NCBI GenBank assembly: GCA_965215165.1
Contig: CBDCCX010000006.1
Location: 2,350,959-2,414,958 of the forward strand
Length of the DNA: 64,000 nucleotides
From: Rhodothermales bacterium
GTDB lineage: Bacteria; Bacteroidota; Rhodothermia; Rhodothermales; JANQRZ01
Reading direction: 5' to 3'
Shown here in pieces: positions 5,990 to 63,623 of this stretch. How positions within the stretch are numbered: position 1 is the stretch's first letter; every line of letters starts with the position of its first letter. Made by a program: the position numbers and the translations under genes. A model generated the notes under the pieces. The model was not told the DNA's origin, made no database searches, and worked only from the letters and a program-made list of their open reading frames with translations.

Positions 5990-7144
5990 CTAGCGCGTCC
6001 ACCCGAGAGAGTCGGGATCAAAGTTGCGCACCGGCACCATCGCGCTGCGGGCGTAGCGGGCGGTGTAGCCACCGAAGATGCCGACGGCGTCGCTCTGCTC
6101 CTTCGGGAGCACCTGCCCGCTGGGAGAGACACGGAAGACGTTCGAGATGGACGGGAAGTACATTGTATCTCGGTCCGCGACGACAGCCGCCGTGTTCCAC
6201 TGCGCCTGCGCCCATGGGTCTCCGTCGACGATGCTGTACTCGTAGTCCTCGGGTGCGTAGTAGCGCGAGAGCTCCGGGCTGAGCTGGTAAAGTCGGAGGT
6301 AGAGATCATGGAAGTAGACGAGCGGGTCAACCGAAGATTCGTACCAAGCTAGCGCAGGACCGATATCACTAAAACTGGGTGTGAATACAAAATAGAGTGA
6401 TCCCATACGGAGATAGTCACCCCGGTCTTCATGCGGAAAACTCTCGTCAGACTGGAGACCGAAAATGGCTCGGTCGGCAGTAAGCGAGCGGTTGTACCCG
6501 AACACCGTCACGACAGCCTCTTCGTCTGCTTTCCATTCGATAGGCAAGATTCCACCTTCGCCACGATACCCGCTCCGGTCATCCGGCTCCAGTTCCACCG
6601 GCACCCGGAAGGTGTCCGGCACCGCCCACTCGGCAAGACCGGGCAGCGTCGTCTCCGCCGTATAGCGACGACCATCGGCGAGTGTCACGTCGAGCCGGTA
6701 GCTCCCGTGTGGAACGCGGACCAGTTCCTCGTCGAGGTCGCCGTAGACGCCGCGCCGTTCGTGTTGGAACCGGACGGTCTGCTCGCCGGCCTGTCCAAGC
6801 GGTCCGGTGATGCTCACCTCTGCCGTGTTATCCGGGTGCGGGCGAAGCTGAAGGTTCCGAAGCTTCATTCCCACCTGACACCACTGGATCGGCATCCACA
6901 TCTCTTCGTTCGGCTTGTGCTCGCGGTCGGCGAAGAGTTGGTAGTTGAAGTCAAGCGGATCGGAGAGTCGGCCGACGTAGACTTGGGTGTGGTGGAACGA
7001 AGTGTCGGGTGAAGCTTCGAGCGTGGAGACGATGAAGACCGTAGAGTCGGGGACGAGCTTCGTCGTCCAGGTTGGAATGGGGGCCGTGGTATCGCACCCC
7101 CCGAGAAGGAGGCCCAGCAAAGCGAGGGCGAGGGCAGTACGCAT
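5990..7144 (-). CDS. Lipoprotein, DUF4249-like
   Basis: 384 aa. Lipobox LLLGGCD. The C-terminal GIFGGYTARY motif is reminiscent of the Bacteroidota DUF4249 lipoproteins that accompany outer-membrane receptors. Confidence 0.5.
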   Translation of the reverse strand: MRTALALALLGLLLGGCDTTAPIPTWTTKLVPDSTVFIVSTLEASPDTSFHHTQVYVGRLSDPLDFNYQLFADREHKPNEEMWMPIQWCQVGMKLRNLQLRPHPDNTAEVSITGPLGQAGEQTVRFQHERRGVYGDLDEELVRVPHGSYRLDVTLADGRRYTAETTLPGLAEWAVPDTFRVPVELEPDDRSGYRGEGGILPIEWKADEEAVVTVFGYNRSLTADRAIFGLQSDESFPHEDRGDYLRMGSLYFVFTPSFSDIGPALAWYESSVDPLVYFHDLYLRLYQLSPELSRYYAPEDYEYSIVDGDPWAQAQWNTAAVVADRDTMYFPSISNVFRVSPSGQVLPKEQSDAVGIFGGYTARYARSAMVPVRNFDPDSLGWTR

Positions 7145-7232
7145 GGTAGGCAGCAGGCAACCGTGGGAAGGTGAACAGGCCAGCCGCTCGGTCGCTCATT
7201 CTGACCGAGCGGCTGGCTCCAGCAGTGAGAGG

Positions 7233-7848
7233 CTAGATCGTGATGCTCTGCTTCGTGAACGAGTACCGCAGCCCGTAGCTGTCGGTTGCATAGACGATGG
7301 TCCCGTTAATCGTGCGGCTGTTCACCGTCGTGGTGTTCACCCGCCGGATGCCTGACTGGGTGAACACGTCATCGCTCGAGACGAAGGCGTGGTTGTTAGC
7401 GTCGAGCTTGGTGTAGCGCGTCTCGAACCCACCGGTGCTGAAGTTGATCGTGCGGATGTTGCCGCGCCAGTCGCCGCTGCGCCGGCTGAGGTGGTTCACG
7501 CCCCAATCATCTTCGTTCATATACGCACGGTAGTAGGTATTCGAAGACGTGAGTTGAACGACAGGGAAGTCGTGTGATTGATATACCGGTCGGCACCGTG
7601 TTGGACCTTGGACGTAGTAGTCACAGTCGTAAAACAACCCAGCTCCGAAAGGATAGTCTGTGCCAGCATAGTTCACGTCTGCCGCACGGAACCAGAGCAC
7701 TTGGTTGTACGCCCACGTGTGCGGATTCAGCGTGTTCGCACTACCATTCTCGGGGTTGTGTCCAGAAACAGTCCAAGCGGCGTTGTCGACCGGCGAGAAG
7801 AATGAGGCCGGCGCAGAGACTGGCGACAGATGCTTTGATGTACGACAT
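7233..7848 (-). pseudogene. Secreted protein of unknown function; signal peptide and mature part are in different frames
   Basis: The ATG at 7848 encodes MSYIKASVASLCAGLILL, and that frame then stops after 35 codons. The 155+ aa body (7233..) is open upstream with no ATG, and it becomes contiguous with the signal peptide after a single-nucleotide shift near 7790-7800. Confidence 0.4.
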
Positions 7849-7974
7849 GGATGTTTGACCCCGGAGGGCCCGAAATAGTGGAGTGATTCCCCGAAGGGCG
7901 GGGCGTCACACCAAGAGTAGCCACGCCGCTAATGGTGGCATAGTGACAGGTGTAACGACCTGCCATGACACCTG

Positions 7975-8637
7975 TCACGAATTGTCGGCGTGCTCGTCCT
8001 TCGGCCCTAGCCCATGCTGCCACGCCCATAGAATCGCTTCCCCCCTGCTCTTGACGCAAATCCTCTCGTACAGTGCTGACACCCGGTTCCGCACGGTTCC
8101 TTCTGCGAGGTGGAGGCGCTCGGCGATGCGCTTGTTGCTGTAGCCCCGCGCGAGCAAACTTATGGTTTCGGATTCCCCCGGGCTCAATGGAAGCTCCAAC
8201 GGCCGTGCCTCTAGCACCTTCCTGACAGCCTTGAAGAGGTCAGACCGGCTTCGCCGCCAGTCCCCTTCGGCTACGGCCTGCACTTTTTCCATGAGCGACT
8301 CGGGCGCTTCACTCGCTCCCACGCATCCGGCGACGTTGAGCGCCAGCAGATCGGCAGCCTCCGATACGCTACGGACCGTCTGAACGACGAGCACTTTGTT
8401 AGGGGGCAGTCCGGCTCGCTCCAGCCTTGCCAGCATCCCTGCCCAGTCTTCTCCGAGCATATCGACGATAGCGAGACTGCATGGACTGCCCCCGAGGGCT
8501 GGCAGGTCTCGTCCTTCCCCAGTCATTTCCTCAAGTAGCTCCACTGGGCGCGTGCCGTCCGCGTCCTCCAGCACCTTGAACAAACCGACTTGGAGGACGG
8601 AGGGCCGAACAGCTACTCCGACTAGAATCTCGCTCAC
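7975..8637 (-). CDS. LuxR/FixJ-family transcriptional regulator with a degenerate receiver domain
   Basis: 220 aa with a GTG start. The C-terminal HTH (LSPGESETISLLARGYSNKRIAERLHLAEGTVRNRVSALYERI) is present. The N-terminal domain aligns to NarL-type receivers, but the acidic DD pocket is replaced (ILVGVAVRP). Confidence 0.75.
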   Translation of the reverse strand: MSEILVGVAVRPSVLQVGLFKVLEDADGTRPVELLEEMTGEGRDLPALGGSPCSLAIVDMLGEDWAGMLARLERAGLPPNKVLVVQTVRSVSEAADLLALNVAGCVGASEAPESLMEKVQAVAEGDWRRSRSDLFKAVRKVLEARPLELPLSPGESETISLLARGYSNKRIAERLHLAEGTVRNRVSALYERICVKSRGEAILWAWQHGLGPKDEHADNS

Positions 8638-10606: not shown

Positions 10607-10846
10607 TCAGGCCGTGCGGTTGGCCTCGACGTAGGAGACGGCGTCGCCGACGGTGGCAATCTTCTCGGCGTCCTCGTCGGGGATCGTCATGTCGAACTCC
10701 TTCTCGAACTCCATGATCAGCTCCACGGTGTCGAGCGAGTCGGCCCCGAGGTCGTCCTGGAAGGAGGCGTCGTCGCGGATCTCGCTCTCGTCGACGCCGA
10801 GCTTCTCGACGATGATGGAAGTGACGCGTTCTTTGGTATCAGCCAT
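10607..10846 (-). CDS. acpP: Acyl carrier protein
   Basis: 79 aa with the phosphopantetheine attachment motif [17 protein letters not shown]. Confidence 0.95.
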
Positions 10847-11094
10847 GTCTGGGAGGGGGTGAGCGGGAGAGGCGGGCGGCGCGGGCGGCAGGGGCGCACG
10901 CCGTGGGTGAAGGGGAAAAGCTACGGTGGAGGCCCTTCGAAAGCAATCCGCTGCCGCCACCGGCGGGCGCTCAGGCCGCGAAGTTCCGGTTAGAACGGGA
11001 CCCGCGCGGCTGGGTTGCAGCCTCGCAGTTGGCGTGGCCTGCAGCATGGGCTATTTTCGACCTCTTCTTTCTCGCCGCTCCCACCGCTACGCGC

Positions 11095-12264
11095 ATGGCC
11101 TACCTCTTCACCTCCGAATCCGTCTCCGAAGGCCACCCGGACAAGGTCTCCGACCAGATCTCCGACGCCCTGCTCGACGCCTTCCTCACCGACGATCCCC
11201 ACAGCCGCTGCGCCATCGAGACGCTCTGCACGACGGGCCTCGTCGTCGTCTCGGGCGAGGTCACGAGCGAGACCTACGTCGACGTGCAGGAGGTCGCCCG
11301 GCGGACCATCGAGGAGATCGGCTACACCGACCCGGCGCTGCGCTTCGACGCCCGCTCCTGCGGCGTGCTCGTCACCATCCACGAGCAGAGCAGCGACATC
11401 GCCCAGGGCGTCGACGAGAACGCGGGCCTGGACCCGGACCAGGGCGCGGGCGACCAGGGCATGATGTTCGGCTACGCCACGAACGAGACCGACGAGCGGA
11501 TGCCGCTCGCGCTCGTCTGCGCCCACGGCCTGGTCAAGAAACTGGCCGAGATCCGCAAGGCCGGCGAGGCGATGCCCTACCTCCGGCCCGACGCCAAGAG
11601 CCAGGTCACGGTCGAGTACGGTGACGACCGCCGCACTATCCGCCGCATCCACACCGTCGTCGTCTCGACGCAACACGGCGAGGACGTGAGCCTGGCGCAG
11701 ATCGAGGCCGATGTCCGCGAGCACATCCTCCCGGCCGTCCTGCCTGCTCACCTGCTCGATGACGACCTGATCCTGCACGTCAACCCGACCGGCCGGTTCG
11801 TGGTCGGCGGCCCGCACGGCGACACCGGCCTGACCGGGCGCAAGATCATCGTCGACACCTACGGCGGCAAGGGCGCGCACGGCGGCGGCGCGTTCTCCGG
11901 CAAGGACCCCTCGAAGGTGGACCGCTCGGCGGCCTACGCCGCCCGCCACGTAGCCAAGAACCTGGTCGCGGCGGAGCTCGCCGAGGAGGTGCTCGTCCAG
12001 GTGGCCTACGCCATCGGCGTCGCTCAGCCGGTGAGCATCGACGTGACGACTTACGGCACCGGCGCGGTCCCGGACGCGGCGCTCGTCGCCGCCGTGCGCG
12101 ACACGTTCGACCTCCGCCCGAGCGCCCTCATCGAGCGGCTCGGCCTGCTCCGCCCCGTCTACCGCCCGACCGCCGCCTACGGCCACTTCGGCCGCGACGA
12201 GTTCGCGTGGGAGCAGCTCGACGCCGTCGACGCCCTGCGCGACGCCATCAGCGCGCACGCCTGA
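11095..12264 (+). CDS. metK: S-adenosylmethionine synthase
   Basis: 389 aa from the ATG at 11095. [52 protein letters not shown]. Confidence 0.95.
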
Positions 12265-12968
12265 TGGAACGCGCCTCGCTCCTGCCGGCCGCCATCCTCG
12301 CGCTCGGCCTCGTCGTAGCGGCGCTCGTCTTCGGGACGTTCTTCTACAACGCGCGTGACACGGGCGACACCGTGCAGACCGTCGGCGCGGCGACCGAGCT
12401 GTTCACCGCGGACGTGGCGAAGTGGCGGCTCGTGCTGATGCGCCCGACCGACCTCGACGGACAGCAGGCCGGCTACCGCGCGCTCGCCACCGACGTGCAG
12501 TCGCTCCGCGCCCAGCTTCGCGGCCTCGGCCTGCCCGACACCAGCGTCACTGTCCAGCCGCCGAGCGCGAACCCGACCTACGGCTACAACGGCACCCCGA
12601 CCGGCTACCAGGTCCAGCAGACCCTGTTCGTGGTCTCGGAGAACGTGGACGAGGTTGAGCGGCTCGCGCTCGACCCGGCGTCGCTCCAGACCGGCGGGGC
12701 CTCGCTCCAGTCGTCCTCGCTCGAGTATTTCTACTCCGACCTCGACCGGCTCAAGCGCAGCCTGCTCGCTCGGGCCACGGACGACGCCCGGGCGCGAGCC
12801 GCCGAGATCGTCGGGGCCGAGGTCGAGCACATGACGGCGGCGCGGGCGGGCGTCTTCCAAATCACCGAGCCGTACTCGACCGAGGTCAGCAGCTACGGGA
12901 TGCACAACACCGCGACCCGCCGGCAGGAGATCACCGTGACGGTCCACACGACGTTCGAGGTGGACTGA
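12264..12968 (+). CDS. SIMPL/DUF541-like membrane-anchored protein
   Basis: 234 aa. Its ATG overlaps the metK stop (TGATG). It has an N-terminal TM helix, and the overall composition resembles SIMPL-domain proteins. Confidence 0.55.
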   Translation: MERASLLPAAILALGLVVAALVFGTFFYNARDTGDTVQTVGAATELFTADVAKWRLVLMRPTDLDGQQAGYRALATDVQSLRAQLRGLGLPDTSVTVQPPSANPTYGYNGTPTGYQVQQTLFVVSENVDEVERLALDPASLQTGGASLQSSSLEYFYSDLDRLKRSLLARATDDARARAAEIVGAEVEHMTAARAGVFQITEPYSTEVSSYGMHNTATRRQEITVTVHTTFEVD

Positions 12969-19458: not shown

Positions 19459-20688
19459 GTGCGCACCGGACACTCCAACTGGCGACGGCGTGTGACGGCC
19501 CCTCTCCACCCTGGCATTGCCGTGCCCCGTCCCCTCGTCGTCTTTTCCCACCTCCGGTGGGACTTCGTCTACCAACGCCCGCAGCATCTGCTCACCCGCC
19601 TCGCTCGCACCTGGCCCGTCCTGTTCATCGAGGAGCCGGTCCGCGACGAGACCGAGCCGCACTGGGAGCGGTCGGAGCCAGAGGAGGGCGTCACCGTTTT
19701 GCGGCCGCACACGCCGGTCGAGCCGTGGGGCTTCAACGACGAGCAAGCCCCGGTCCTCGAGGTGCTCCTCGACGAGCTGGCCGAGGCGCAGTCTCTGCGC
19801 GGGGCCGTCGCGTGGCTCTACACGCCGATGGCGCTCGACCTGGCCCGCCGGCTCGACCCCACCGCCCTGGTCTACGACCGGATGGACGCGCTCGCGCAGT
19901 TCGCCCACGCGCCGCCCGAGATGCGACGCAACGAGAGCAGGCTGCTGGACGCGGCCGACGTGGTCTTCACCGGCGGCCCGAGCCTGCACCGCAGCGTCGA
20001 GGACCGGCACCCGAACGTGCACCTGTTCCCGTCGTCGGTCGAGGCCGAGCACTTCGCCAAGGCGAAAGACGGGTATAGCGCGCAGGCGAAAGATGGGATG
20101 TCCGAGCCGGAGGATCAGCGCGGCATTCCGCGTCCGCGGCTGGGCTACTTCGGCGTGATCGACGAGCGGATGGACCTGGACGTCGTCCGCGCCCTCGCCG
20201 AGACGCACGCTGAGTGGCAGGTCGTGATGGTCGGGCCGGTGGTCAAGATCGACCCGGCGTCGCTGCCCCAAGCGCCCAACCTCCACTGGCTCGGGCAGAA
20301 GGCCTACGCCGACCTCCCGGCCTACCTCGCCGGGTGGGACCTAGCGCTGCTGCCGTTCGCCCGCAACGAGTCGACCGAGTTCATCAGCCCGACCAAGACG
20401 CTCGAGTACTTCGCAGCCGAGGTGCCTGTCGTCTCGACCCCGATCACGGACGTGGCCGATCTCTACGGCGAGACGGTCTACCTCGGCGACACGCCCGGCG
20501 CGTTCGTCGCCGCCTGCGAATCGGCCCTCGCCTCGGACCCAGCCGAGCGGGCGGAGCGCGCCGGACGGATGCGGGCCGTCTTGGCCGCGACCTCGTGGGA
20601 CCGGACGGCGGCGGCGATGGAGCGGCTGCTCGGCGAGGTGCTAAAGGACAGAGCCCTCGAGGAAGAGGAGCCTATCGGCATCACGTGA
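19459..20688 (+). CDS. Glycosyltransferase (GT1-like family that typically accompanies glf)
   Basis: FSHLRWDFVYQRPQHLLTRLA N-terminal signature and a C-terminal GT-B-like region (NESTEFISPTKTLEYFAAEVPVVSTPI). The start may instead be the GTG at 19522. Confidence 0.7.
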   Translation: MRTGHSNWRRRVTAPLHPGIAVPRPLVVFSHLRWDFVYQRPQHLLTRLARTWPVLFIEEPVRDETEPHWERSEPEEGVTVLRPHTPVEPWGFNDEQAPVLEVLLDELAEAQSLRGAVAWLYTPMALDLARRLDPTALVYDRMDALAQFAHAPPEMRRNESRLLDAADVVFTGGPSLHRSVEDRHPNVHLFPSSVEAEHFAKAKDGYSAQAKDGMSEPEDQRGIPRPRLGYFGVIDERMDLDVVRALAETHAEWQVVMVGPVVKIDPASLPQAPNLHWLGQKAYADLPAYLAGWDLALLPFARNESTEFISPTKTLEYFAAEVPVVSTPITDVADLYGETVYLGDTPGAFVAACESALASDPAERAERAGRMRAVLAATSWDRTAAAMERLLGEVLKDRALEEEEPIGIT

Positions 20689-20754
20689 TGGGCTGACAGG
20701 CCTTTGGCACCGCGCCGCCCGATCTTGCCCTCTCCTCTCTTCACCTCTCCCCTC

Positions 20755-22024
<1,270 letters not shown>

Positions 22025-22038
<14 letters not shown>

Positions 22039-23182
22039 CACCCATAAACAGCTAGACCGAACTCCTCCCTTCCCGACGTTTTTCGGGGCCGGGTTCGAGT
22101 GCTCCACGCACCGCCGCGCCGACGGTCTCCGGCTCGACCTGCTCGCCGCCACGGGGCATGACCGCTGGGCGCAGCAGGACTATGCCGCCGCGCGCCGGCA
22201 TGGGCTGGGCTGGGCGCGCGACGGCCTGCGCTGGCACCGCATCGAGACCGCGCAGGGCTACGACTGGAGCGGGTGGCTGCCGCGACTGGGTGCCGCGCGC
22301 GACGCGGGCGTAACCGTCGCCTGGGACCTGTGCCACTACGGCTGGCCCGACGGGCTCGACATCTGGACGCCCGCGTTCGTCGACCGCTTCGCGGCCTTCG
22401 CCCGCGCCGCCGCCGAGGTCTTTCAGAGCGAGACCGACGCCGTGCCGGTCTGGTGCCCGGTCAACGAGCCAAGCTACTGGTCGTGGGCCGGCGGCGACCA
22501 AGCCCACTTCAACCCCGGCACGACCGGCCGCGGCTTCGAGCTCAAGGTTCAACTCGCCCGCGCCACGATTGCGGCCGCCGGCGCGCTCCGCAGCGTCGAC
22601 CCGCGCGCGCGCCTGCTCGCGGCGGACCCTGTGATCCACATCGCCCCGGCCCGGCCCGACGATGCGGCCGAGGCCGAGGCCCGCCGCCTGGCGCAGTTCC
22701 AGTCGTGGGACCTGCTCTCGGGCCGCCTCTGGCCTCAGATCGGCGGCCGGCCAGCGCTCCTCGACCTGATCGGGGTCAACTACTACGACCACAATCAGTG
22801 GACGCACGGCGGGCCGCACTTCGGCGACGAGCACCCGGCGTACCGCCCGCTTCGCCACATCCTCGGCGAGGTGTGGGACCGTTACGGCTGCCCGCTCGTG
22901 ATCGCCGAGACCGGCACCGAGGGCCCCGCGCGTCCGGCGTGGCTCGCCAAGATTGGGCGCGAGGCGCGGGCGGCGCGCGAGGCGGGCGTGCCGCTCGAAG
23001 GCTTGTGCCTCTACCCCGTCACCGATTACCCTGGCTGGGACGACGGGCGTGTCTGCACCTCCGGGCTGTTCGGCCTCGCCGGTGTGACGGGCGAGCGGCC
23101 GGTCTACGCGCCCCTCGCCGAGGAGCTGGCCCGGCAGCAGGTCCTCGTGGGCGAGCGCGCACGTGCGGAGGCGATGGCATGA
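22025..23182 (+). CDS. TIM-barrel glycoside-hydrolase-like protein (GH1-like)
   Basis: 385 aa. The ATG at 22025 overlaps the glf end by 14 nt. FGAGFECSTH, NEPSYWSW and VIAETG resemble the acid/base and nucleophile Glu contexts of GH1-type enzymes. Confidence 0.55.
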
Positions 23183-24303
23183 GCCGGCCTTCAGTCTGCC
23201 TCTACACCGAAAGCCCTGCGCCCTCGGGCGTCGGCTGCCACATGCTCGCGCTCGCCGAGCGGCTGCGCGACCGGTTCGCGCTCTCGTTCGCCTGCCCCCC
23301 CGGCCCCGGCGGGACGGCGCTGCTCGGCCAAGCCCACGCCCTCGGCCTGCCGACGCTCGCGCTCGACCGACTCGGTGCCCTCGTCCCGTTTCTCGATGCC
23401 CACGCGCCGGCGCTCGTCCACCTCCACGCCGGGATCGGGTGGGAAGGGCACGCCGGGGCGCGGCTCGCCGGGGCGTGGGGCGCGCGCGTGCTCCGCACCG
23501 AGCACCTGCCCTACCTCCTGACCGACCGCGTGCAGCAGGGCGACTACCACCTCGCGCTTGACGCCGTGGACCGCGTGCTGTGCGTCTCCGAGGGCGCGCG
23601 CCGGAGCTATGCCGAGGCTGGAGTTCCCGACGAGAAGTTGTGCGTCGTCCGCAACGGCATCCCCGAGCCGGTCGCTGGCTCCGACGGCCTGGGCGTCCGG
23701 CACCGACTCGGACTTGCACCCGACGCGCTCGTCGCGCTCACCGTCGGGCGCTTCACCGAGCAGAAGGGCTATGACGTGCTCTTGGACTCGGTCCCGGCCG
23801 TGCTCGATCATGTCCCCGAGACGCGGTTCCTCTGGGTCGGCGACGGGCCGCTCTGGGCCGAGACCAGCTACGAGGTCGCGCGTCGCGGGCTGGGAGAGCA
23901 GGTGTTGCTGCCCGGCCGCCGGAGCGACGTGCCGGACCTGATGGCGGCGGCCGACCTGTTCGTGCTGCCGTCGCGGTTCGAGGGGTTGCCGCTGGCCGTG
24001 CTCGAGGCGCTTGCGGCGCGACTGCCGGTCGTCGCCACGCGCGTGGTCGGGACCAAGGAGGCCGTGCTGGACGGCGAGACCGGATGGCTCGTCCCGCCCG
24101 AGAACGCGGTGGCCCTCGCCGTCACCGTCATCACGGCGCTTCAGGACGCTGGGCTCCGGCACCGCCGCGCCGAGGCAGCGCGCGCCGACTTCGAGGCCCG
24201 CTGGACCGCCCGCCGGATGGCCGACGACACCGCCGCCGTCTACGATGACCTCTTGGCTACGCCGCCGCGCCGCTCGCGCGCCACCTTCCTCTCCCTTCTA
24301 TGA
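23179..24303 (+). CDS. Glycosyltransferase family 4
   Basis: 374 aa with an ATGA overlap to the previous gene. GT-B C-terminal motif: LPSRFEGLPLAVLEALAARLPVVATRVVGTKEAVLDGETGWLVPP. Confidence 0.85.
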   Translation: MSRPSVCLYTESPAPSGVGCHMLALAERLRDRFALSFACPPGPGGTALLGQAHALGLPTLALDRLGALVPFLDAHAPALVHLHAGIGWEGHAGARLAGAWGARVLRTEHLPYLLTDRVQQGDYHLALDAVDRVLCVSEGARRSYAEAGVPDEKLCVVRNGIPEPVAGSDGLGVRHRLGLAPDALVALTVGRFTEQKGYDVLLDSVPAVLDHVPETRFLWVGDGPLWAETSYEVARRGLGEQVLLPGRRSDVPDLMAAADLFVLPSRFEGLPLAVLEALAARLPVVATRVVGTKEAVLDGETGWLVPPENAVALAVTVITALQDAGLRHRRAEAARADFEARWTARRMADDTAAVYDDLLATPPRRSRATFLSLL

Positions 24304-24812
24304 ACGGGGACCGCCCTATGAACACGGACCGCACCCTCGGCTCGCTCCGCACCGCCGCGCTTCTGCTCGGGGCCGGCATGGGCGGCTTCGTCGACGGCTT
24401 CGCGCTGCACCAGATCGCGCAGTGGCACAACATGCTCTCGGCCGTGCTCCCGCCGACGACGATGGAGGCGATGAGCACGAACATGGTCGCCGACGGGTGG
24501 TTCCACGCGGGCGTCTGGGGGATCACCCTGGGCGGCCTGCTGCTGCTCTACAGCACCGCCCGGCGGCTGCCGGCGCTCCCGCCGATGCGGTGGTTTGTCG
24601 GGATGCTGCTCGTCGGCTGCGGGCTGTTCAACCTGGTCGAGGGCGCGACCAATCACCACCTGCTGGAGCTGCACCACGTCCGCGACGTGCCGTACCACAT
24701 GCCCGTCTACGACTGGCTGTTCCTGCTTATCGGCGGCGTCGGCGTCGGCGCGCTGGGGTGGTCCATCGCCCGGTCCGCGAGCGCGCCAGCCATCCCAAAC
24801 GCGGAGCCCTAA
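24300..24812 (+). CDS. DUF2243-like integral membrane protein
   Basis: 170 aa with an ATGA overlap to the GT4 gene. GGFVDGFALHQIAQWHNMLS and four TM helices. Confidence 0.65.
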   Translation: MNGDRPMNTDRTLGSLRTAALLLGAGMGGFVDGFALHQIAQWHNMLSAVLPPTTMEAMSTNMVADGWFHAGVWGITLGGLLLLYSTARRLPALPPMRWFVGMLLVGCGLFNLVEGATNHHLLELHHVRDVPYHMPVYDWLFLLIGGVGVGALGWSIARSASAPAIPNAEP

Positions 24813-24836
24813 CCCCGCCTCACAGAGTCGCCTGCC

Positions 24837-25787
24837 ATGACCGACCACCCCGACATGCTCCCAGCGCTGACCGAGCCGCTGAGCCCGGTTCATCCCGTCA
24901 CCGACGACCTCGCCTACCTCCGCACGGTCATGGTGAACGTCTACCTCTACGGGCCGCCCCGGGCTGGCGACGGCGCGTGGGTCCTGGTCGATGCCGGGCT
25001 CTACGGCGCGGCGGGGCACATCCGCGAGGCGGCGGCCGAGCGGTTCGGCGAGGGCGCGCCCCCCGCCGCGATTGTCCTCACGCACGGACACTTCGACCAC
25101 GTCGGCGCGCTCAGCGCGCTCGCCGCCGCGTGGGACGTGCCCGTCTACGCCCACGCCTTCGAGCTACCCTACCTCACTGGCCGCTCGGCCTATCCCCCAC
25201 CCGACCCGACCGTCGGCGGCGGTGCCCTCGCAGCGCTCTCGTTCGCCTACCCGAAGGGGCCCATAGACCTCGGCTGGCGCGTGCGCGCGCTCCCGGAGGA
25301 CGGGACGGTGCCGGGGATGCCCGGCTGGCGGTGGATTCACACGCCGGGCCATACGCCGGGCCACGTCGCGCTCTGGCGCGAGGCCGACCGCACGCTCATC
25401 GCGGGCGACGCCTTTGTGACCGTGAAGCAGGAGTCGGCGCTCGCCGTGCTCCGGCAGCGGCCGGAGGTGCACGGGCCGCCGGCCTACTTCACCCCGGACT
25501 GGCAGGCTGCCGCAGCCTCCGCGCGGGCGCTGGCGGCCCTCGAACCGGAGGTCGCGGCGACGGGCCACGGCGTCCCGCTCCGGGGGCCGGCGATGCGCAT
25601 GGCCCTCGGCCGGCTGGCCGACGACTTCGAGCGCGCCGCCGTGCCAGAGCGCGGGCGCTACGTGGGACACCCGGCCGTGGCCGACGAGCGCGGCGTCGTG
25701 GCCGTGCCGCCGCCGGACCCGCGCCTCGCCGCGTGGCTCGTCGCCGGGGCCGCCGCTGTCGGGCTCACCCTCGCACTCCGCCGCTAA
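24837..25787 (+). CDS. MBL-fold metallo-hydrolase
   Basis: 316 aa. THGHFDHVGA metal-binding motif, then HTPGHTPGH. Confidence 0.8.
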   Translation: MTDHPDMLPALTEPLSPVHPVTDDLAYLRTVMVNVYLYGPPRAGDGAWVLVDAGLYGAAGHIREAAAERFGEGAPPAAIVLTHGHFDHVGALSALAAAWDVPVYAHAFELPYLTGRSAYPPPDPTVGGGALAALSFAYPKGPIDLGWRVRALPEDGTVPGMPGWRWIHTPGHTPGHVALWREADRTLIAGDAFVTVKQESALAVLRQRPEVHGPPAYFTPDWQAAAASARALAALEPEVAATGHGVPLRGPAMRMALGRLADDFERAAVPERGRYVGHPAVADERGVVAVPPPDPRLAAWLVAGAAAVGLTLALRR

Positions 25788-25812
25788 CGGCGCGCCCCCG
25801 CGCGCTTCTCCG

Positions 25813-26703
25813 ATGCCTGCCCTCTCTCCCTCTTCTCTTCGCACCGCGTTCCGGGCGCTCGTCGGCGACGGCGACTACCCCTGCGTGATGGCGAAGTCCG
25901 CGCTCCGGCGCGGCGAGGTGGCCTTCCACGCCTACCCGACCTTCGACGCGTCCGCGGCCGATGCGCTCGCGCGCGACCTCGCCCTGTTTGCGCACGCGCC
26001 CGAGCCGGAGCGGGGGGTACGCTCGTTCGTGGCCGTCTTCGGCGGCGACGCGCCCGCCTCGGAACGCGCGTTCGAGGAGCGGCTGTGGGCCATGCTCTCC
26101 GCCCTTCACGCTCGCGACGGCGCAGGTTGGGATCCGGCCGTCTCCGCCGACCCCGCCGATCCCGAGTTCTCGTTTTCGTTCGCCGGGCGGGCGTTCTACG
26201 TCGTCGGGATGCACCCGCGCGCGTCGCGGCCGGCTCGCCGGCTGGGGCACCCGGCGCTCGTGTTCAACCCGCACGAGCAGTTCGAGCAGCTGCGGCGCGA
26301 GGGGCGCTACGCGAAGGTCCGCAGCCTCATCCGCGAGCGCGACCGCGCGCTCGCCGGTTCGGTGAACCCGATGCTCGACGACTTCGGCGTGCGGAGCGAG
26401 GCGCGGCAGTACGCCGGCCGGGCCGTGGGGGAGGGCTGGCAGTGCCCGTTCGCGGCGGAAGCCGAGGCGGAAGCCGAGGCGGAAGCCGAGGCGGAAGCCG
26501 AGGCGGAAGCCGAGGCGGAAGCCGACGCCGAGACGCCGCCCCGTCCCTCCACTTTTGACGTGCGGCTACGCGCCGGCCGCATCCACCCTCCCTCTCCTCA
26601 TCCCCCCTCGTCATGTCCCGCCTCCGCGCCGTCAACCCCTCGCTCTGGATCGCCGACACCCCCCGCACCGACTACGACACGCTCGGAGCCGGCGAGCGAA
26701 TAG
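25813..26703 (+). CDS. YqcI/YcgG-family protein (family of the heme N-oxygenase GntA) with an (AE)n repeat and a Pro/Ser-rich tail
   Basis: PCVMAKSAL, SFVAVF, FSFSFAGRAFYVVGMHP, ALVFNPHEQF and RYAGRAVGEGWQCPF are family-typical blocks. The last 91 nt overlap the next gene, so the true 3' end is uncertain. Confidence 0.7.
   Translation: MPALSPSSLRTAFRALVGDGDYPCVMAKSALRRGEVAFHAYPTFDASAADALARDLALFAHAPEPERGVRSFVAVFGGDAPASERAFEERLWAMLSALHARDGAGWDPAVSADPADPEFSFSFAGRAFYVVGMHPRASRPARRLGHPALVFNPHEQFEQLRREGRYAKVRSLIRERDRALAGSVNPMLDDFGVRSEARQYAGRAVGEGWQCPFAAEAEAEAEAEAEAEAEAEAEAEADAETPPRPSTFDVRLRAGRIHPPSPHPPSSCPASAPSTPRSGSPTPPAPTTTRSEPASE
26452..26532 (+). repeat. 12-bp tandem repeat GCCGAGGCGGAA (5 perfect copies at 26461..26520, plus degenerate flanking copies)
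   Basis: Read directly from the sequence. It encodes AEAEAE... inside the YqcI/YcgG gene, and the period is a multiple of 3. Confidence 0.95.
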
Positions 26704-28157
26704 CGGCGGACGTGGTCGTCGTCGGGGCCGGGATCACCGGGCTCACGACGGCTCTCCTCCTCCAGCAGGACGGCGCGCGCGTGGCGCTCGTCGAGGCAGG
26801 GCGCGTGTGCGCCGGCGTCACGGCCTTCACGACGGGCAAGGTCACCTCGCTCCACGGCCTCATCTACGGCCCCTTGCAGGAGAAATTCGGCGAGGAGACC
26901 GCCCGCGTCTACGGCGAGGCGAACGAGGCGGCCGTCGCCCAGGTCGCCGCGCTCGTCGAGGAGCTGGGACTCGACTGCGGCTGGGAGCGGCGGCCGAACT
27001 ACACCTACACCACCGACGAAAAGACGCTGCCCGCCGTCGAGCGCGAGGTCGAGGCGGCCCAGCAGGCGGGGCTGGCGGCCTCGTTCACGACTGAGACCGA
27101 GCTGCCCTTCCCCGTCCTCGGGGCCGTCCGCGTCGAGGACCAAGCGCAGTTCCACGCGCGGAGGTACGGGCTCGGGCTGGCCGAGGCGTTCCGCGCGCGG
27201 GGCGGGCAGATTTTCGAGGAGAGCCGCGTCGTGGACGTGGACACCGCCGAGGGGCGATGCATGACCGAGAGCGGCGGCACGGTCGAGGCGGAGCACGTCG
27301 TCCTCGCCACGCACCTCCCGATCCTCGACCGCGGCGGCTTTTTCGCCAAGACGCACCCGCAGCGGACCTACCTCATGGCGTTCGAGACGCCCGAGCCCGC
27401 CCTCCAGAACATGTACCTCAGCAAGGGCGGCGGGCCGTCGTGGACGCTCCGCAGCGCCGAGGGCGGGCGCTACCTGGTCGCCGGCGGCCAGAGCCACAAG
27501 ACGGGCGAGGAGGCCGACACCCCGGCCCGCTACGCCGCGGTGGAGCGCTGGGCGCGCGAGCACTTCGGCGTCGGGCCGGCCGCCCACCGCTGGAGCGCGC
27601 ACGACTACGTGCCCGTCGACGAGATGCCGTACATCGGGAAGCTCCCGTTCGGGAACGGCCGCGTCTTCGTTGCCACCGGCTACAACAAGTGGGGGCTCTC
27701 GAACGGCACCGTCGCCGCGCTCATCCTCGCCGACGCCGTGGCCGGGCGGCCGAACCCGTGGGCCGAGACGTTCGACGCGAACCGGGCCGACCTCGCGGCC
27801 TCGGCGAAGGAGTTCGTCAAGGAGAACCTCGACGTGGCCGCCCGCTTCGCCGGCGACCGCATCCGCCACCTGGTCGGCCGCGACCCGGCCGAGCTGGGAC
27901 CGGACGAGGGCGCCGTCGTCGAGGCCGGCGGGCGGCGCGTCGGTGCCTACCGCGACGCGGAGGGACGGCTCCACGCCGTCTCCCTGACGTGTACCCACCT
28001 CGGCTGCCACGTGAACTGGAACCCCGCCGAGCGCTCGTGGGACTGCCCCTGCCACGGCTCGCGCTACGACGTGGACGGCCGCATCCTCCACGGCCCCGCC
28101 GTCCGCCCCCTCGACCGCGTTTCCCTCGACGACGAGCCCCTCGACGACGATGCCTGA
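26613..28157 (+). CDS. FAD-dependent oxidoreductase fused to a C-terminal Rieske [2Fe-2S] domain
   Basis: 514 aa. DVVVVGAGITGLTTALLL dinucleotide-binding motif. Rieske ligand motifs CTHLGCHV ... CPCHGSRY. Confidence 0.85.
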   Translation: MSRLRAVNPSLWIADTPRTDYDTLGAGERIAADVVVVGAGITGLTTALLLQQDGARVALVEAGRVCAGVTAFTTGKVTSLHGLIYGPLQEKFGEETARVYGEANEAAVAQVAALVEELGLDCGWERRPNYTYTTDEKTLPAVEREVEAAQQAGLAASFTTETELPFPVLGAVRVEDQAQFHARRYGLGLAEAFRARGGQIFEESRVVDVDTAEGRCMTESGGTVEAEHVVLATHLPILDRGGFFAKTHPQRTYLMAFETPEPALQNMYLSKGGGPSWTLRSAEGGRYLVAGGQSHKTGEEADTPARYAAVERWAREHFGVGPAAHRWSAHDYVPVDEMPYIGKLPFGNGRVFVATGYNKWGLSNGTVAALILADAVAGRPNPWAETFDANRADLAASAKEFVKENLDVAARFAGDRIRHLVGRDPAELGPDEGAVVEAGGRRVGAYRDAEGRLHAVSLTCTHLGCHVNWNPAERSWDCPCHGSRYDVDGRILHGPAVRPLDRVSLDDEPLDDDA

Positions 28158-28839
28158 CCTCGAGCCCGAACCCGCCCTCACGCCCCTCGCCGGCCGCTGC
28201 CGGATCGCGCCCTCCAGCGGGACCGCCTTCCGCCTCCGCCGCGGGCAGCGCTTGCGCGTGACCGACCCGGAGGGTCAGCAGGTCTCGGACCTGATGGTTT
28301 TCGCCGACCCGCCCGACGGGCCGGACCCCGGCCACTGGCTCAGCTCCGGCCGCACGTTCGACTACGAGGAGACGATCCGGCTCACGACGGGCCACCGGCT
28401 CTGGAGCAACCGGAGCGAGCCCATGCTCACCATCACCGAGGACACGTGCGGCGTCCACGACTTCCTCCTCACGCCCTGCTCGCCCGAGATGTACACGCTC
28501 CTCTACGGCCTCCCGCCGGGCCACGAGCATGCGAGCTGCCTGATGAACCTCGCCCGTCACCTCGGCCCGTTCGGGATGGGCCGCGACCGCGTGCCGACCA
28601 CGTTCAACATCTTCATGAACGTGCCAGTCCGTCCCGACGGCTCGCTCTCCGTCGAGCCGCCGACGAGCCGGCCGGGGGATTACGTCGTGTTCCGGGCCGA
28701 GATGGACCTGGTCGTCGGGCTCACGGCGTGCGCGGCCGAGGGCACCAACAACGGCGCGCTCAAGCCCATCGACTTCGAGGTGCTCCCGCCCGAGGCGGAG
28801 GCCGAACCCGAGACGGCTGCGGCCGAGGTAGCGCGATGA
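28150..28839 (+). CDS. DUF1989 protein (urea-carboxylase-associated / carboxyguanidine-deiminase-type family)
   Basis: 229 aa with an 8-nt overlap (ATGCCTGA) to the previous gene. GQQVSDLMVF, GVHDFLLTPCS, NIFMNVPV, PGDYVVFRAEMDLVVGLTAC. Confidence 0.75.
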   Translation: MPDLEPEPALTPLAGRCRIAPSSGTAFRLRRGQRLRVTDPEGQQVSDLMVFADPPDGPDPGHWLSSGRTFDYEETIRLTTGHRLWSNRSEPMLTITEDTCGVHDFLLTPCSPEMYTLLYGLPPGHEHASCLMNLARHLGPFGMGRDRVPTTFNIFMNVPVRPDGSLSVEPPTSRPGDYVVFRAEMDLVVGLTACAAEGTNNGALKPIDFEVLPPEAEAEPETAAAEVAR

Positions 28840-29288
28840 GGCGCGGGCTCAACCCCAAGCTCGGCGGCGGCGGGCTCCACCACGTCGCCGTCGAGGCGGC
28901 CGACTTCGAGGCCAGCCTCCGGTTCTACGTCGAGGGGCTGGGCTTCGTCGAACGCCTTCGGTTCCCCGAGGAGACGCCGGAGGGCGTCCTGCGCGTCGCC
29001 ATGCTCGACGCCGGCGACGGCACCTACGTCGAGCTCTTCGAGCCGACCGAGCGCGGCCCGAGCACGGCCGGCGGCCCCGTGCCCGGCGGCCCGGCCCTTT
29101 TCCACTTCGCCTTGCGCGTGGCCGACTGCGACGCGGCAACCGAACGCGCTCGCGCCGCCGGGGCCGCCGTCGAGGAAGGCCCGGCGACGATGACGCTCGA
29201 AGGCGACCCGCCGGTCGAATGCCGGTACAGCTTCGTCCGCGGGCCGGGCGGCGAGTCCGTCGAGCTCATCGCCATCGACGCGCTCTAG
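28836..29288 (+). CDS. VOC (glyoxalase/bleomycin-resistance/dioxygenase) family protein
   Basis: 150 aa with an ATGA overlap. LHHVAVEAADFEASLRFYVEGLGF ... YVELFE ... HFALRV. Confidence 0.8.
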   Translation: MRRGLNPKLGGGGLHHVAVEAADFEASLRFYVEGLGFVERLRFPEETPEGVLRVAMLDAGDGTYVELFEPTERGPSTAGGPVPGGPALFHFALRVADCDAATERARAAGAAVEEGPATMTLEGDPPVECRYSFVRGPGGESVELIAIDAL

Positions 29289-45560: not shown

Positions 45561-45665
45561 ATAAGGGCAAGCGACCCGCATCGCGCCGCTACGACCTCCT
45601 ACCGCTGCTGCCTTCCGGCCCTGACGGAGTTCAGAGGGAGCTGGCCGTACGGGACTTGCCCTTAT
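45561..45665 (-). ncRNA. ffs: Signal recognition particle RNA (small/4.5S type)
   Basis: The minus strand reads ...CCGUCAGGGCCGGAAGGCAGCAGCGG..., which is the conserved domain IV with a GGAA tetraloop and flanking symmetric-loop residues. The molecule is closed by an 11-bp terminal stem (AUAAGGGCAAG/CUUGCCCUUAU). Confidence 0.8.
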
Positions 45666-45772
45666 GCCGCCGGCAGGCCCACACGCTCGGGCGGCCGGAC
45701 TCCAGTGATGCCAATATACACAGACGCCGTAGGCCGGATCCGCGTCACGCGATTTTCAACGGCTGCGCTGTT

Positions 45773-62390: not shown

Positions 62391-62468
62391 ACAAGAAACA
62401 TACCTCCTAATTTGTATATTCTCTAGCAAGAATGCGACTCTTTGACTGACCGATTCGTATAAAATAAA

Positions 62469-62498
62469 CGCCGCCACTCGCAAGAGCGAGCGGCGGCG
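62469..62498 (+). terminator. GC-rich hairpin inside the AT-rich tract downstream of ptrB
   Basis: CGCCGCCACTCGC-aaga-GCGAGCGGCGGCG, a 13-bp stem with one mismatch, flanked by A/T-rich sequence. Confidence 0.5.
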
Positions 62499-62799
62499 GA
62501 CACATTTAAAATATATACTGTATCTTCTCGAGTACCCACTCCACATTACGGGGAATGCTCATTGTTATTGATGTTCTTTTGAGCCATTTCCAGAAACGGA
62601 AGTCTTTGTATTTTTTCATAACTTTAATAGTTATGAACAGCCTGTTGCTTGCCTCAATTTTGCATTATTTTAACTCTCGTATTAATATCACCTGAACATC
62701 AGGCTACGCTTGGTTAATTGAATCGCCTGCCCGTACTGTGGGGTGTGGGGCAGGTTCCCCTTGTTGCTCAAATCCACTAGCAAGCGAATTCAGCAGCGG

Positions 62800-63063
62800 C
62801 TATCGGTACACGTCCCGGCGGTTGCCCACCTTCACCACTTCCACGACGAGCACATCGTCCGATATGGTGTAGACGATTCGGTAGCTCCCCTGTCGGACGC
62901 GGTAGGCCTCTCGTCCCGCGAGTTTCGTGCAGCCTGGCGGACGCGGGTCGTCCGCGAGCGCTGCGATCCGTGCCACGACGCGCTGCCGGTCCTTCTTCCG
63001 GCTGATCGCTCGAATCTCCTTTGCCGCGCTCCTCTTGATCTCGACCCGGTACCGCTCCGGCAT
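62800..63063 (-). CDS. RelE/ParE-family type II toxin
   Basis: 87 aa. Layout typical of RelE/ParE: YRVEIKRSAAKEI...L.DDPRPPGCTKL...YRVRQGSYRIVYTI.D..LVVEVVKVGNRRDVY. Confidence 0.8.
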   Translation of the reverse strand: MPERYRVEIKRSAAKEIRAISRKKDRQRVVARIAALADDPRPPGCTKLAGREAYRVRQGSYRIVYTISDDVLVVEVVKVGNRRDVYR

Positions 63064-63299
63064 CAGATCGTGCCCTCGGCCTTCAGCTCCCGGACGAACG
63101 CCTCGAAGGAAACCGTAGGTTCGTCTGCACGCTCTTCGAGCGCCGCGAGATCGTCGGCGTCCTCGGCTAGCAGCACGCGGACGGCCTCGTTGACGACATC
63201 CGAAATGGACCGCTCGGCAGCGGCGGCCTTGAGGCGGAGGGCCTTGTGGAGCGCCGAGTCGAAGTAGACCGTAGCGCGCTTCGGGGGAGGCGTAGGCAT
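63063..63299 (-). CDS. Cognate antitoxin (RHH/CopG-like N-terminus)
   Basis: 78 aa. Its stop overlaps the toxin ATG by 1 nt. The N-terminal KRATVYFDSALHKALRLKAAAAERSISDVVNEAVR resembles a ribbon-helix-helix. Confidence 0.65.
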   Translation of the reverse strand: MPTPPPKRATVYFDSALHKALRLKAAAAERSISDVVNEAVRVLLAEDADDLAALEERADEPTVSFEAFVRELKAEGTI

Positions 63300-63434
63300 C
63301 GAAAGGGTGTGGGTCGTAGAAACGCTACGACGTCAAAACGTCTTGGTCAGCTAGTGGTTTCGTGGCCTCCTACGCCGCTACGGGCTTGAGGCGGTCGAGG
63401 TAGTGGCGGTGGAGCTTGGAGACCTTCGGCGCGC

Positions 63435-63623
63435 TCACGGCCTGTGCTCTCGAGAGGCGAGCGCGTTCGCCGTTCGGATGACGCTGCCTCCTTCTGGTCG
63501 GCGGACCTTGCCGTTGTAGAAGGCGATCCGTTCCTCTCGCGTCGCCCCTTTCAATTCCTCGTAGTGGGCGTCCCGGATGCGTCGGACCATTCGCACGGCG
63601 TCAATCTGCTTCGGCTTCTCCAT
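63435..63623 (-). CDS. Small protein partner of the upstream PIN-like gene
   Basis: 62 aa with an ATG start that overlaps the PIN-like gene by 23 nt. From memory, the pattern KxxDAVRMVRRIRDxxYEELKG is the usual small neighbour of this PIN-like family. Confidence 0.4.
   Translation of the reverse strand: MEKPKQIDAVRMVRRIRDAHYEELKGATREERIAFYNGKVRRPEGGSVIRTANALASREHRP

Follow-up and report, generated by a model that had tools for sequence, protein, structure and literature searches.

A widely conserved YcgG–DUF1989 gene pair with lineage-specific additions in a Rhodothermales bacterium

Conservation of two genes out of five

The 64,000-nt stretch of DNA from a Rhodothermales bacterium considered here (the window; contig CBDCCX010000006.1) carries five consecutive genes on the plus strand, encoding a metallo-β-lactamase (MBL)-fold metallo-hydrolase, a YqcI/YcgG-family protein (YcgG), a flavin adenine dinucleotide (FAD)-dependent oxidoreductase with a C-terminal Rieske domain (FAD-Rieske), a DUF1989 protein and a small vicinal oxygen chelate (VOC) protein. 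An earlier note on this DNA had read the five as one unit, possibly acting on a guanidino or other nitrogen-rich small molecule. The comparative analysis revealed that the conserved unit consists of two genes, those of YcgG and DUF1989, and not of five, and that the locus is a widely conserved two-gene module with lineage-specific additions. The existence of a conserved, functionally coupled YcgG–DUF1989 pair is close to certain; the pair is an uncharacterised, very widespread two-enzyme system, and its form in the window is locally embellished and partly eroded.

An alignment of 14 YcgG-clade proteins (A1) was used to scan one genome per GTDB species, the best 80 loci were examined, and neighbours were counted by searching the window proteins against the six-frame open reading frames (ORFs) of these loci. 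DUF1989 adjoins YcgG in all 80, nearly always on the same strand and either overlapping it or less than about 130 nt away. These loci belong to 10 phyla (Bacteroidota, Rhodothermota, Gemmatimonadota, Acidobacteriota, Verrucomicrobiota, Bdellovibrionota, Chloroflexota, Actinomycetota, WPS-2 and Proteobacteria of the Alpha-, Beta- and Gamma- classes), and a plasmid record adds Deinococcota as the eleventh. The reverse scan, carried out with the DUF1989 alignment (A2) against metagenome contigs, yielded 80 loci, 74 of which have YcgG directly upstream of DUF1989; all 6 exceptions come from contigs cut so that less than 300 nt of upstream sequence is left, and YcgG is present in every one of the 26 loci whose flanks reach at least 1.5 kb to either side. 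The pair also occurs, among otherwise unrelated neighbours, on annotated plasmids of Comamonas, Deinococcus, Novosphingobium, Chryseobacterium and Skermanella. Moreover, two proteins (P0367 and P0499) are in-frame fusions of the YqcI_YcgG and DUF1989 domains, with the key cysteines of both halves kept. The association of DUF1989 with a family of guanidine N-hydroxylases, to which the earlier proposal had pointed, is thus borne out by the genomes, by the well-flanked metagenome loci and by the two fusions. The other three genes behave differently: neither FAD-Rieske nor MBL stands beside the pair in any of the 80 genome or 80 metagenome loci, and VOC does so in 2 of the former and 1 of the latter. 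Hence the co-occurrence suggested for YcgG with both DUF1989 and FAD-Rieske holds for the first and fails for the second, and the five genes cannot be maintained as one conserved unit.

An exhaustive HMMER search of 1.84 billion representative proteins returned 955 YcgG clusters with E <=1e-3 and 214 with E <=1e-30, the two fusions among them. Two more distant YcgG homologues without DUF1989 were found in cluster-like contexts, one on a Streptomyces plasmid (41% identity) and one on a Rahnella plasmid, where LysE and a B3_4, a 2Fe-2S and a MOSC protein are encoded alongside YcgG. Other fusions of YcgG, to a B3_4 domain, a 'putative cyclase', an ATP-grasp ligase or a LuxR-type helix-turn-helix (HTH) domain, occur among P0377, P0400, P0504 and P0435. 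The literature searched yielded no paper connecting YqcI/YcgG with DUF1989, in agreement with the statement of the earlier note that no characterised pathway of such composition was known.

A predicted heme-thiolate N-hydroxylase

YcgG (25813-26703, plus strand, 296 aa) matches PF08892 with an E-value of 9.7e-60, and its YqcI_YcgG domain (residues 13-213) covers profile positions 1-210 of 211. Six members of the YqcI/YcgG family have been characterised, all of them heme-dependent guanidine N-hydroxylases (PMC12866846; bioRxiv 10.1101/2024.01.24.577118), which require an external reductase and function in natural-product pathways (PMC12866846). With these six (AglA, GntA, DcsA, ChmN, AmbT and Mhr24) YcgG shares the PF08892 domain, the (F/Y)PC thiolate cysteine and an arginine that aligns with one of the heme-propionate residues, and against NF041366, the NCBIfam 'equivalog' model of GntA, it scores 255.9 bits at a cut-off of 145. 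The best match in the PDB is AglA, whose structures are the only solved relatives, at an identity of only ~25%. In AglA the axial heme ligand is Cys44 and the propionate partners are Arg166, Lys196 and Arg200, and in ChmN the axial cysteine is Cys47 (PMC12866846). Cys24 of YcgG, located in the YPC motif (codon 25882-25884), aligns with AglA Cys44 and is the predicted heme ligand, a residue for which the earlier note had proposed to look; this cysteine is kept in 13 of the 14 clade sequences in A1, the exception being an N-terminally truncated entry. Arg142 aligns with AglA Arg166 and is invariant in A1, and Tyr129 occupies the position of AglA Phe152. For AglA Arg179, Phe182, Lys196, Arg200 and Lys225 no counterparts were assigned: the phmmer and clade-profile alignments stop at about AglA residue 187, and the region of Lys196 and Arg200 lies outside the HMMER alignment with the window YcgG.

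The AlphaFold2 model of YcgG (pLDDT 74, with low confidence for the C-terminal 30 residues) was compared with the PDB by Foldseek. The top five matches are all AglA entries, with TM-scores of 0.66-0.70 and probability 1.00, the best superposition on AglA reaching 0.70, and YcgG is accordingly predicted to adopt the AglA-type α/β 'sandwich' fold. Ranks 11-50 of the same search are mostly partial matches of ~80 residues to the oxygenase domains of nitric oxide synthase (NOS), non-significant at E >1.

The clade to which YcgG belongs differs from the six known enzymes in several respects. It possesses invariant C-terminal motifs of its own, SEARQY.GR and W.CPF, and the window protein keeps all the invariant residues (CPF at 26443-26451); it has no cognate PDR/VanB-type reductase nearby; and while the known N-hydroxylases reside in natural-product clusters, the members of this clade are paired with DUF1989 in otherwise unrelated contexts. 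Judged from its sequence, the window YcgG is a homologue of the heme-thiolate N-hydroxylases that falls into the 'FPC/CPF motif' YcgG clade, with N-hydroxylation as its predicted activity.

A predicted three-cysteine zinc site in the DUF1989 protein

The partner of YcgG (28150-28839, plus strand, 229 aa) matches PF09347 with an E-value of 5.7e-60 and consists of the DUF1989 domain only. The COG names of the two families are 'FPC/CPF motif-containing protein YcgG' and 'uncharacterized protein YcgI (DUF1989 family)', and the B. subtilis genes ycgG and ycgI, from which both names derive, are presumably near neighbours.

PDB matches of the DUF1989 protein comprise 3ORU/3SIY, 3DI4 and TDM, the trimethylamine N-oxide (TMAO) demethylase (9Q59), and the predicted structure superposes on 3SIY and 3ORU with a Foldseek TM-score of 0.77. 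In the Paracoccus TDM the DUF1989 core holds a zinc ion on three cysteines, the oxygen of TMAO coordinates this zinc, Asp220 is important, helping to hold the substrate that is bound through its oxygen, and no iron was found (PMC13619132); an earlier model of M. silvestris Tdm agrees on the zinc cysteines (PMC12560246). The three cysteines and Asp220 have counterparts in the window protein. Its predicted zinc site is formed by Cys110 (28477-28479), Cys130 (28537-28539) and Cys194 (28729-28731), which align with C285, C301 and C365 of TDM, match C263, C279 and C343 of M. silvestris Tdm and are invariant in A2; Asp47 (28288-28290) corresponds to TDM Asp220 and is invariant in the YcgI clade (A2). 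Two further substrate-site residues of TDM, Phe327 and Asp367, are replaced by Met156 and Ala196, and the window protein is without the GcvT/tetrahydrofolate (THF) domain and the N-terminal DUF1989-like domain of TDM.

The scores against the models of characterised subfamilies are all far below the cut-offs: 112.6 and 86.6 bits for UAAP1 (TIGR03424) and UAAP2 (TIGR03425), with cut-offs of 284.7 and 205.95, and 93.1 bits for Tdm (NF053776), with a cut-off of 1100. The protein therefore represents an uncharacterised subfamily and falls into none of the characterised ones, a point that the earlier note had asked about. A further characterised DUF1989 enzyme, CgdAB, whose subunits are UAAP1 and UAAP2, acts on carboxyguanidine (cited in PMC11271267).

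Possible joint function of YcgG and DUF1989

Because the YcgG family hydroxylates guanidines and the DUF1989 family handles N-substituted guanidines or N-O compounds, the two proteins could act one after the other. The reading that we prefer, tentatively and at slightly less than an even chance, is drawn by analogy with the known enzymes: YcgG would N-hydroxylate a guanidino compound and DUF1989 would hydrolyse the activated product. With O2 and with electrons supplied by a general ferredoxin/flavodoxin system, YcgG would convert a guanidino group to its N-hydroxylated form, the candidate substrates being guanidine itself and, among amino acids, free L-arginine or one that resembles it. The hydroxylated product might then bind the zinc of DUF1989 through its N-OH oxygen, just as TMAO is bound through its N-oxide oxygen in TMAO demethylase, and the weakly basic, electrophilic hydroxyguanidine could be cleaved hydrolytically at the guanidine carbon. 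The leaving group would be ammonia, in which case an N-hydroxyurea-type product remains, or hydroxylamine, in which case the product is of the urea or citrulline type. N-hydroxylation would lower the basicity and the resonance stabilisation of the guanidinium group, as carboxylation does in the known pathway of guanidine degradation; on this account the pair would parallel guanidine carboxylase plus CgdAB, with an oxidative activation that needs no ATP.

The likeness to guanidine carboxylase and CgdAB lies in the common logic 'activate, then deiminate', applied to an N-substituted, less basic guanidine. The differences are that CgdAB is a heteromer of two DUF1989 paralogues, whose adjacent genes stand next to that of a urea/guanidine carboxylase and often follow a guanidine riboswitch, and the window locus has a single DUF1989 gene, that the activation would depend on O2 and N-hydroxylation instead of ATP and carboxylation, and that here neither a carboxylase-like recurrent neighbour nor an allophanate hydrolase nor a guanidine riboswitch is found. 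With TMAO demethylase the window protein shares the DUF1989 core, the three-cysteine zinc site and the equivalent of Asp220, and a hydroxyguanidine would offer to the zinc the same kind of N-O oxygen. A hint in support of N-hydroxylation chemistry comes from 21 loci of Flavobacteriia (among them L007, L014, L015, L017-L019, L022 and L023), in which a gene of the PF04299 (PaiB/KtzT) family is inserted between YcgG and DUF1989, ~10-620 nt after YcgG: KtzT, a PF04299 protein, is a heme-dependent piperazate synthase, which makes an N-N bond from an N-hydroxylated amine.

Several observations weigh against this reading. Both the YcgG clade and the YcgI-type DUF1989 clade are uncharacterised, and the analogy to TDM is structural only. 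The substrate-binding C-terminal half of YcgG, which in AglA forms the substrate gate, cannot be aligned with AglA at the sequence level, so the substrate cannot be read from the sequence. Hydroxyurea or hydroxylamine, the products to be expected, are toxic, and no enzyme that would obviously process them further is conserved. Neither a dedicated reductase nor a transporter, a regulator or a guanidine riboswitch accompanies the pair in the loci examined, which is unusual for a catabolic pathway; the Rfam search (gathering threshold) of the whole window and 23 related loci yielded only tRNAs and one signal recognition particle (SRP) RNA and no riboswitch of any kind, and the guanidine riboswitch for which the earlier note had recommended to look was thus not found there. 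Finally, the recurrent partners of the pair hint at a more complex pathway, perhaps in the cell envelope or in biosynthesis. These are a membrane protein resembling glycosyltransferase family 2 (GT2-like), which is found in 21 of the 80 genome and 31 of the 80 metagenome loci, a group II pyridoxal phosphate (PLP) decarboxylase (16 loci) and a phospholipase D (PLD)-like protein (10 loci), and their presence suggests that the pair supplies or alters something more elaborate in certain phyla. The GT2-like protein has no Pfam match, no sequence match in the PDB at E <=1, and among NCBIfam models only a 16-bit match to HpnI.

Genes for UDP-galactopyranose mutase and glycosyltransferases occur near the pair in a plasmid of the betaproteobacterium Comamonas antarctica (L087), in L085 (1-494) and in the window. 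Together with the GT2-like partner, these neighbours hint at a link to a glycoconjugate.

The known activities of both families are recent, namely six guanidine N-hydroxylases for YqcI/YcgG and a carboxyguanidine deiminase and a TMAO demethylase for DUF1989, and most members remain unassigned; the strict pairing and the fusions turn two families of 'unknown function' into one precise hypothesis. If the preferred sequence of N-hydroxylation and hydrolysis is true, it would constitute an ATP-independent pathway in the guanidine and arginine turnover of soil and marine bacteria and a self-contained enzyme pair for the biocatalytic N-oxygenation and cleavage of guanidines. Canavanine-utilising bacteria are known to excrete hydroxyguanidine and not to degrade it (PMC9533460, 2022), and no description of a hydroxyguanidine-degrading enzyme was found in the literature searched. 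In our opinion rather unlikely is the boldest claim, that YcgG and YcgI form an unrecognised, very widespread O2-dependent route by which the guanidino groups of arginine, guanidine or a relative are taken apart. This would be a third strategy of guanidine degradation beside guanidine carboxylase/CgdAB and the nickel-dependent guanidine hydrolases, might also supply bacteria under stress with hydroxyurea or hydroxylamine, and would provide the first function for the genes after which both families are named (B. subtilis ycgG and ycgI).

The missing transporter, regulator, reductase and riboswitch, together with the toxicity of the products, imply that a stress or effector role fits the data at least as well as nutrition does. 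Perhaps, then, the pair is not catabolic at all and serves to make a reactive nitrogen compound (hydroxyurea, hydroxylamine, nitroxyl (HNO) or nitric oxide (NO)) from arginine during stress or dormancy? We consider this unlikely, and the same low probability attaches to the mechanism that would underlie it, in which YcgG would carry out a NOS-like first N-hydroxylation and DUF1989 would release the effector in the manner of DcsA/DcsB. NOS oxygenase is likewise a heme-thiolate protein that N-hydroxylates the guanidino group of free arginine; it differs from YcgG in its unrelated fold, in the pterin site, which YcgG lacks, and in performing the second oxidation itself. In D-cycloserine biosynthesis the YqcI/YcgG heme protein DcsA makes N-hydroxyarginine, from which the hydrolase DcsB yields hydroxyurea and ornithine, and this logic is established. 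DcsB, however, belongs to the arginase family, to which DUF1989 is unrelated, and the dcs genes form a dedicated antibiotic cluster. The stress hypothesis gains from the fact that the pair stands by itself in most cases, with no transporter or nitrogen regulator beside it, and that its neighbours are often of stress type: a KGG protein in Deinococcus, a PRC-barrel protein in Novosphingobium, LigD in Chryseobacterium, YetF/DUF421, a short-chain dehydrogenase/reductase (SDR) and TerC in Flavobacteriia, and a catalase and an SPW gene in the window. Yet such neighbours are anecdotal, and those of Flavobacteriia represent one conserved synteny block and not independent cases. A motif GGAAC-N16-17-CGTT, the consensus of the alphaproteobacterial EcfG general-stress promoter, precedes YcgG by 19-128 nt in 5 of 138 loci (L030, L041, L066, L158 and L161), where 0.3 would be expected; these loci, however, amount to only two or three independent lineages. 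Moreover, nothing that could sense such an effector or be its target is linked to the pair.

A further possibility, to which we attach still less weight, departs from the preferred reading at the substrate: YcgG could act on another nitrogen (an amine, an amidine or an N-methyl group), or could be a heme sensor or carrier, and DUF1989 could process an N-oxide or N-hydroxy product in a TMAO demethylase-like way. The C-terminal half of YcgG that escapes alignment with AglA and the substitution of AglA Phe152 by Tyr129 would permit it, as would the presence of an N-oxide demethylase in the DUF1989 family and the functional diversity indicated by the varied YcgG fusions listed above. On the other hand, every characterised YqcI/YcgG member hydroxylates a guanidine, the window YcgG is far above the cut-off of the GntA-based NCBIfam model, and the other characterised DUF1989 enzyme also uses a guanidine derivative.

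Accessory genes

FAD-Rieske (26613-28157, plus strand, 514 aa) combines a DAO-family domain (E 6.8e-50) and a Rieske [2Fe-2S] domain (E 3.4e-13). The GxGxxG signature of the former (GAGITG, 26724-26741) and both Cys-His ligand boxes of the latter (CTHLGC, 27990-28007; CPCHGS, 28044-28061) are present, and the N-terminus encoded from 26613 is conserved in L002. Its Rieske part is closest to the b6f and bc1 subunits, according to both NCBIfam and the PDB, and no characterised relative of the whole fusion was found in the PDB, where the only matches are to Rieske subunits on their own and, weakly, to glycine oxidase. The protein belongs to a large, well-conserved family. In L001, which has the closest relative found for the YcgG gene, the FAD-Rieske gene (10693-12283) is split into two frames, either by gene decay or by an assembly error (8x coverage).

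The MBL protein (24837-25787, plus strand, 316 aa) matches Pfam Lactamase_B with an E-value of 2.9e-40 and contains the motif HGHFDH (25083-25100); no NCBIfam model reaches its cut-off. The VOC protein (28836-29288, plus strand, 150 aa from its ATG) matches Pfam Glyoxalase with an E-value of 4.8e-14, and its best PDB matches are glyoxalase and methylmalonyl-CoA epimerase, dioxygenase models appearing only at E ~1e-3. An extradiol ring-cleaving dioxygenase, considered as a candidate, was rejected, as the 150 aa of this glyoxalase I/methylmalonyl-CoA epimerase-like protein contrast with the ~290 aa of the two-domain enzymes; the ring-cleaving fold assumed in the earlier note has to be abandoned.

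The accessory genes are found with the pair in no more than four or five close relatives. L001, L002, L084 and L085 share the five-gene order (YcgG is 93% identical to that of the window in L001 and 76% in L002, and DUF1989 is 86% identical in L084/L085), and these are also the only loci where MBL adjoins YcgG; VOC follows DUF1989 in L001, L003/L004, L006, L084, L085 (where it is truncated) and L086. We infer that the lineage of the window has added the MBL hydrolase, the FAD-Rieske dehydrogenase and the small VOC protein to the pair as co-transcribed accessories.

Alternatively, all five genes could form one dedicated pathway for a nitrogen-rich small molecule, with FAD-Rieske acting on the same substrate or donating electrons to the heme enzyme. 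The tight co-directional packing with overlapping start and stop codons and the gene order shared with the four relatives speak for such a pathway, and a heme monooxygenase needs an electron donor, for which FAD-Rieske is the only redox protein nearby. We nevertheless find it improbable. The distribution of FAD-Rieske, MBL and VOC given above speaks against it, and homologues of FAD-Rieske at 52-72% identity stand by themselves in unrelated neighbourhoods. Rieske centres of the bc1/b6f type are generally high-potential, which makes such a protein a poor reductant and hence an unlikely reductase for a thiolate heme, and flavoproteins of the DAO family oxidise amines and not NAD(P)H; the frameshift in L001 also tells against such a pathway. 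FAD-Rieske as the redox partner of YcgG was therefore ruled out as the principal interpretation, on the grounds of its distribution and its bc1/b6f-type Rieske motif.

The idea of a genuine GntA, with guanitoxin or a close analogue of it as the product of the locus, is hardly credible: the high NF041366 score and the use of the name by PGAP for 15 of 18 plasmid-borne homologues favour it, but the neighbouring genes encode glycosyltransferases, UDP-galactopyranose mutase, and Gfo/Idh/MocA, alcohol dehydrogenase (ADH)-type and acyl-CoA dehydrogenase (ACAD)-like proteins, the gnt cyclase, hydroxylase, kinase and methyltransferase genes are all missing nearby, and the 'gntA' label spans about eleven phyla wherever the DUF1989 partner occurs. 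A guanitoxin natural-product cluster was ruled out for the five genes by the gene context (17.4-36.8 kb). Thus the term 'GntA-family' used in the earlier note is correct as far as PF08892 and the broad NCBIfam model are concerned and does not extend to the pathway, of which no other gene is found nearby. Plasmid homologues from Comamonas to Deinococcus (e.g. NZ_CP054841.1 and NZ_CP021082.1) are labelled 'gntA, guanitoxin biosynthesis heme-dependent pre-guanitoxin N-hydroxylase'. Since there is neither a guanitoxin gene context nor a guanidine riboswitch, and the NF041366 model is broad, this name is over-specific, and the present analysis would correct a RefSeq label, 'guanitoxin biosynthesis ... 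GntA', that is spreading among bacteria without the toxin cluster.

Deletion scar and rearrangement

The YcgG ORF runs into the FAD-Rieske gene, as had been remarked before: its stop codon TAG ends at 26703 and the ATG of FAD-Rieske lies at 26613, giving an overlap of 91 nt. L084 and L085 encode fusions of YcgG with a GT2-like domain (575 and 586 aa), and in L002 a separate GT2-like gene stands between YcgG and FAD-Rieske. The alignment of these sequences (A3) revealed that the window and L001 have cleanly lost ~330 residues, corresponding to the GT2-like domain, and have retained the last ~40 residues, which are kept because the start of FAD-Rieske overlaps them in another frame. A perfect 12-bp tandem repeat in 6 copies (26454-26525, plus strand; Tandem Repeats Finder score 144, 100% matches), which encodes (Ala-Glu)n, fills this gap in the window. 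The last 83 residues of YcgG (214-296) comprise this repeat and a read-through tail (26527-26703) and are not conserved coding sequence; the G+C content at third codon positions is 0.92 in the YcgG domain but drops to 0.76 over the repeat and to 0.67 over the tail, and in the FAD-Rieske frame it is 0.90 across the overlap. The deletion in A3, the repeat and the drop of third-position G+C indicate that the overlap is the footprint of a recent deletion and not a designed coupling. The (Ala-Glu)n repeat marks the deletion scar, and the GT2-like membrane domain has recently been lost in the window.

A second trace of rearrangement is found just downstream of VOC. The segment 29329-29419 (plus strand) is a relic of ~90 nt of the junction between the end of FAD-Rieske and the start of DUF1989: it forms with 28100-28194 a direct repeat (D5 and D6) of 78-88% identity at a spacing of ~1227 nt. 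This copy suggests an old duplication or insertion of the DUF1989-VOC segment.

Gene array and surroundings

The five plus-strand genes are as described in the earlier note with respect to ORFs, Pfam matches and motifs, and the profile searches returned the same family for each. Motifs are intact in all five: HGHFDH in MBL, YPC (Cys24) and CPF in YcgG, GAGITG, CTHLGC and CPCHGS in FAD-Rieske, and HDFLLTPC, HASC and TAC in DUF1989. Both short overlaps that the note had listed, as read from the sequence, are likewise in place, namely ATGCCTGA between FAD-Rieske and DUF1989 at 28150-28157 and ATGA between DUF1989 and VOC at 28836-28839.

The co-directional array is longer than five genes and extends from ~19459 to 29288. 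Upstream on the same strand it includes three GT4-type glycosyltransferase genes, a UDP-galactopyranose mutase gene (20704-22038) and, outside the core, a gene for a DUF2243 membrane protein (24300-24812; Pfam PF10002, E 3.7e-39), whose start codon shares an ATGA with the stop codon of the GT4 gene before it and which, upstream of the pair, is found in two close relatives only, L001 and L084. Further downstream of VOC there are Gfo/Idh/MocA, ADH-type, GT4, GT2 and ACAD-like genes, and the catalase gene mentioned above lies 5.6 kb upstream and the SPW gene downstream, both within 17.4-36.8 kb. A scan of the window from 19 to 31 kb for sigma-70 promoters and intrinsic terminators gave none above chance.

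The closest named relatives are Rubricoccaceae, and the G+C content of the region is ~73%. The SRP RNA, at 45561-45668 on the minus strand, matches the 'Bacteroidales small SRP' model with 97.6 bits in a genome of ~72% G+C, and together with these relatives it suggests a source close to Rhodothermales/Rubricoccaceae. Two stretches of the window, 6001-8000 and 62001-64000, have a G+C content of ~0.60, compared with 0.67-0.76 in the rest, and may be foreign or non-coding islands.

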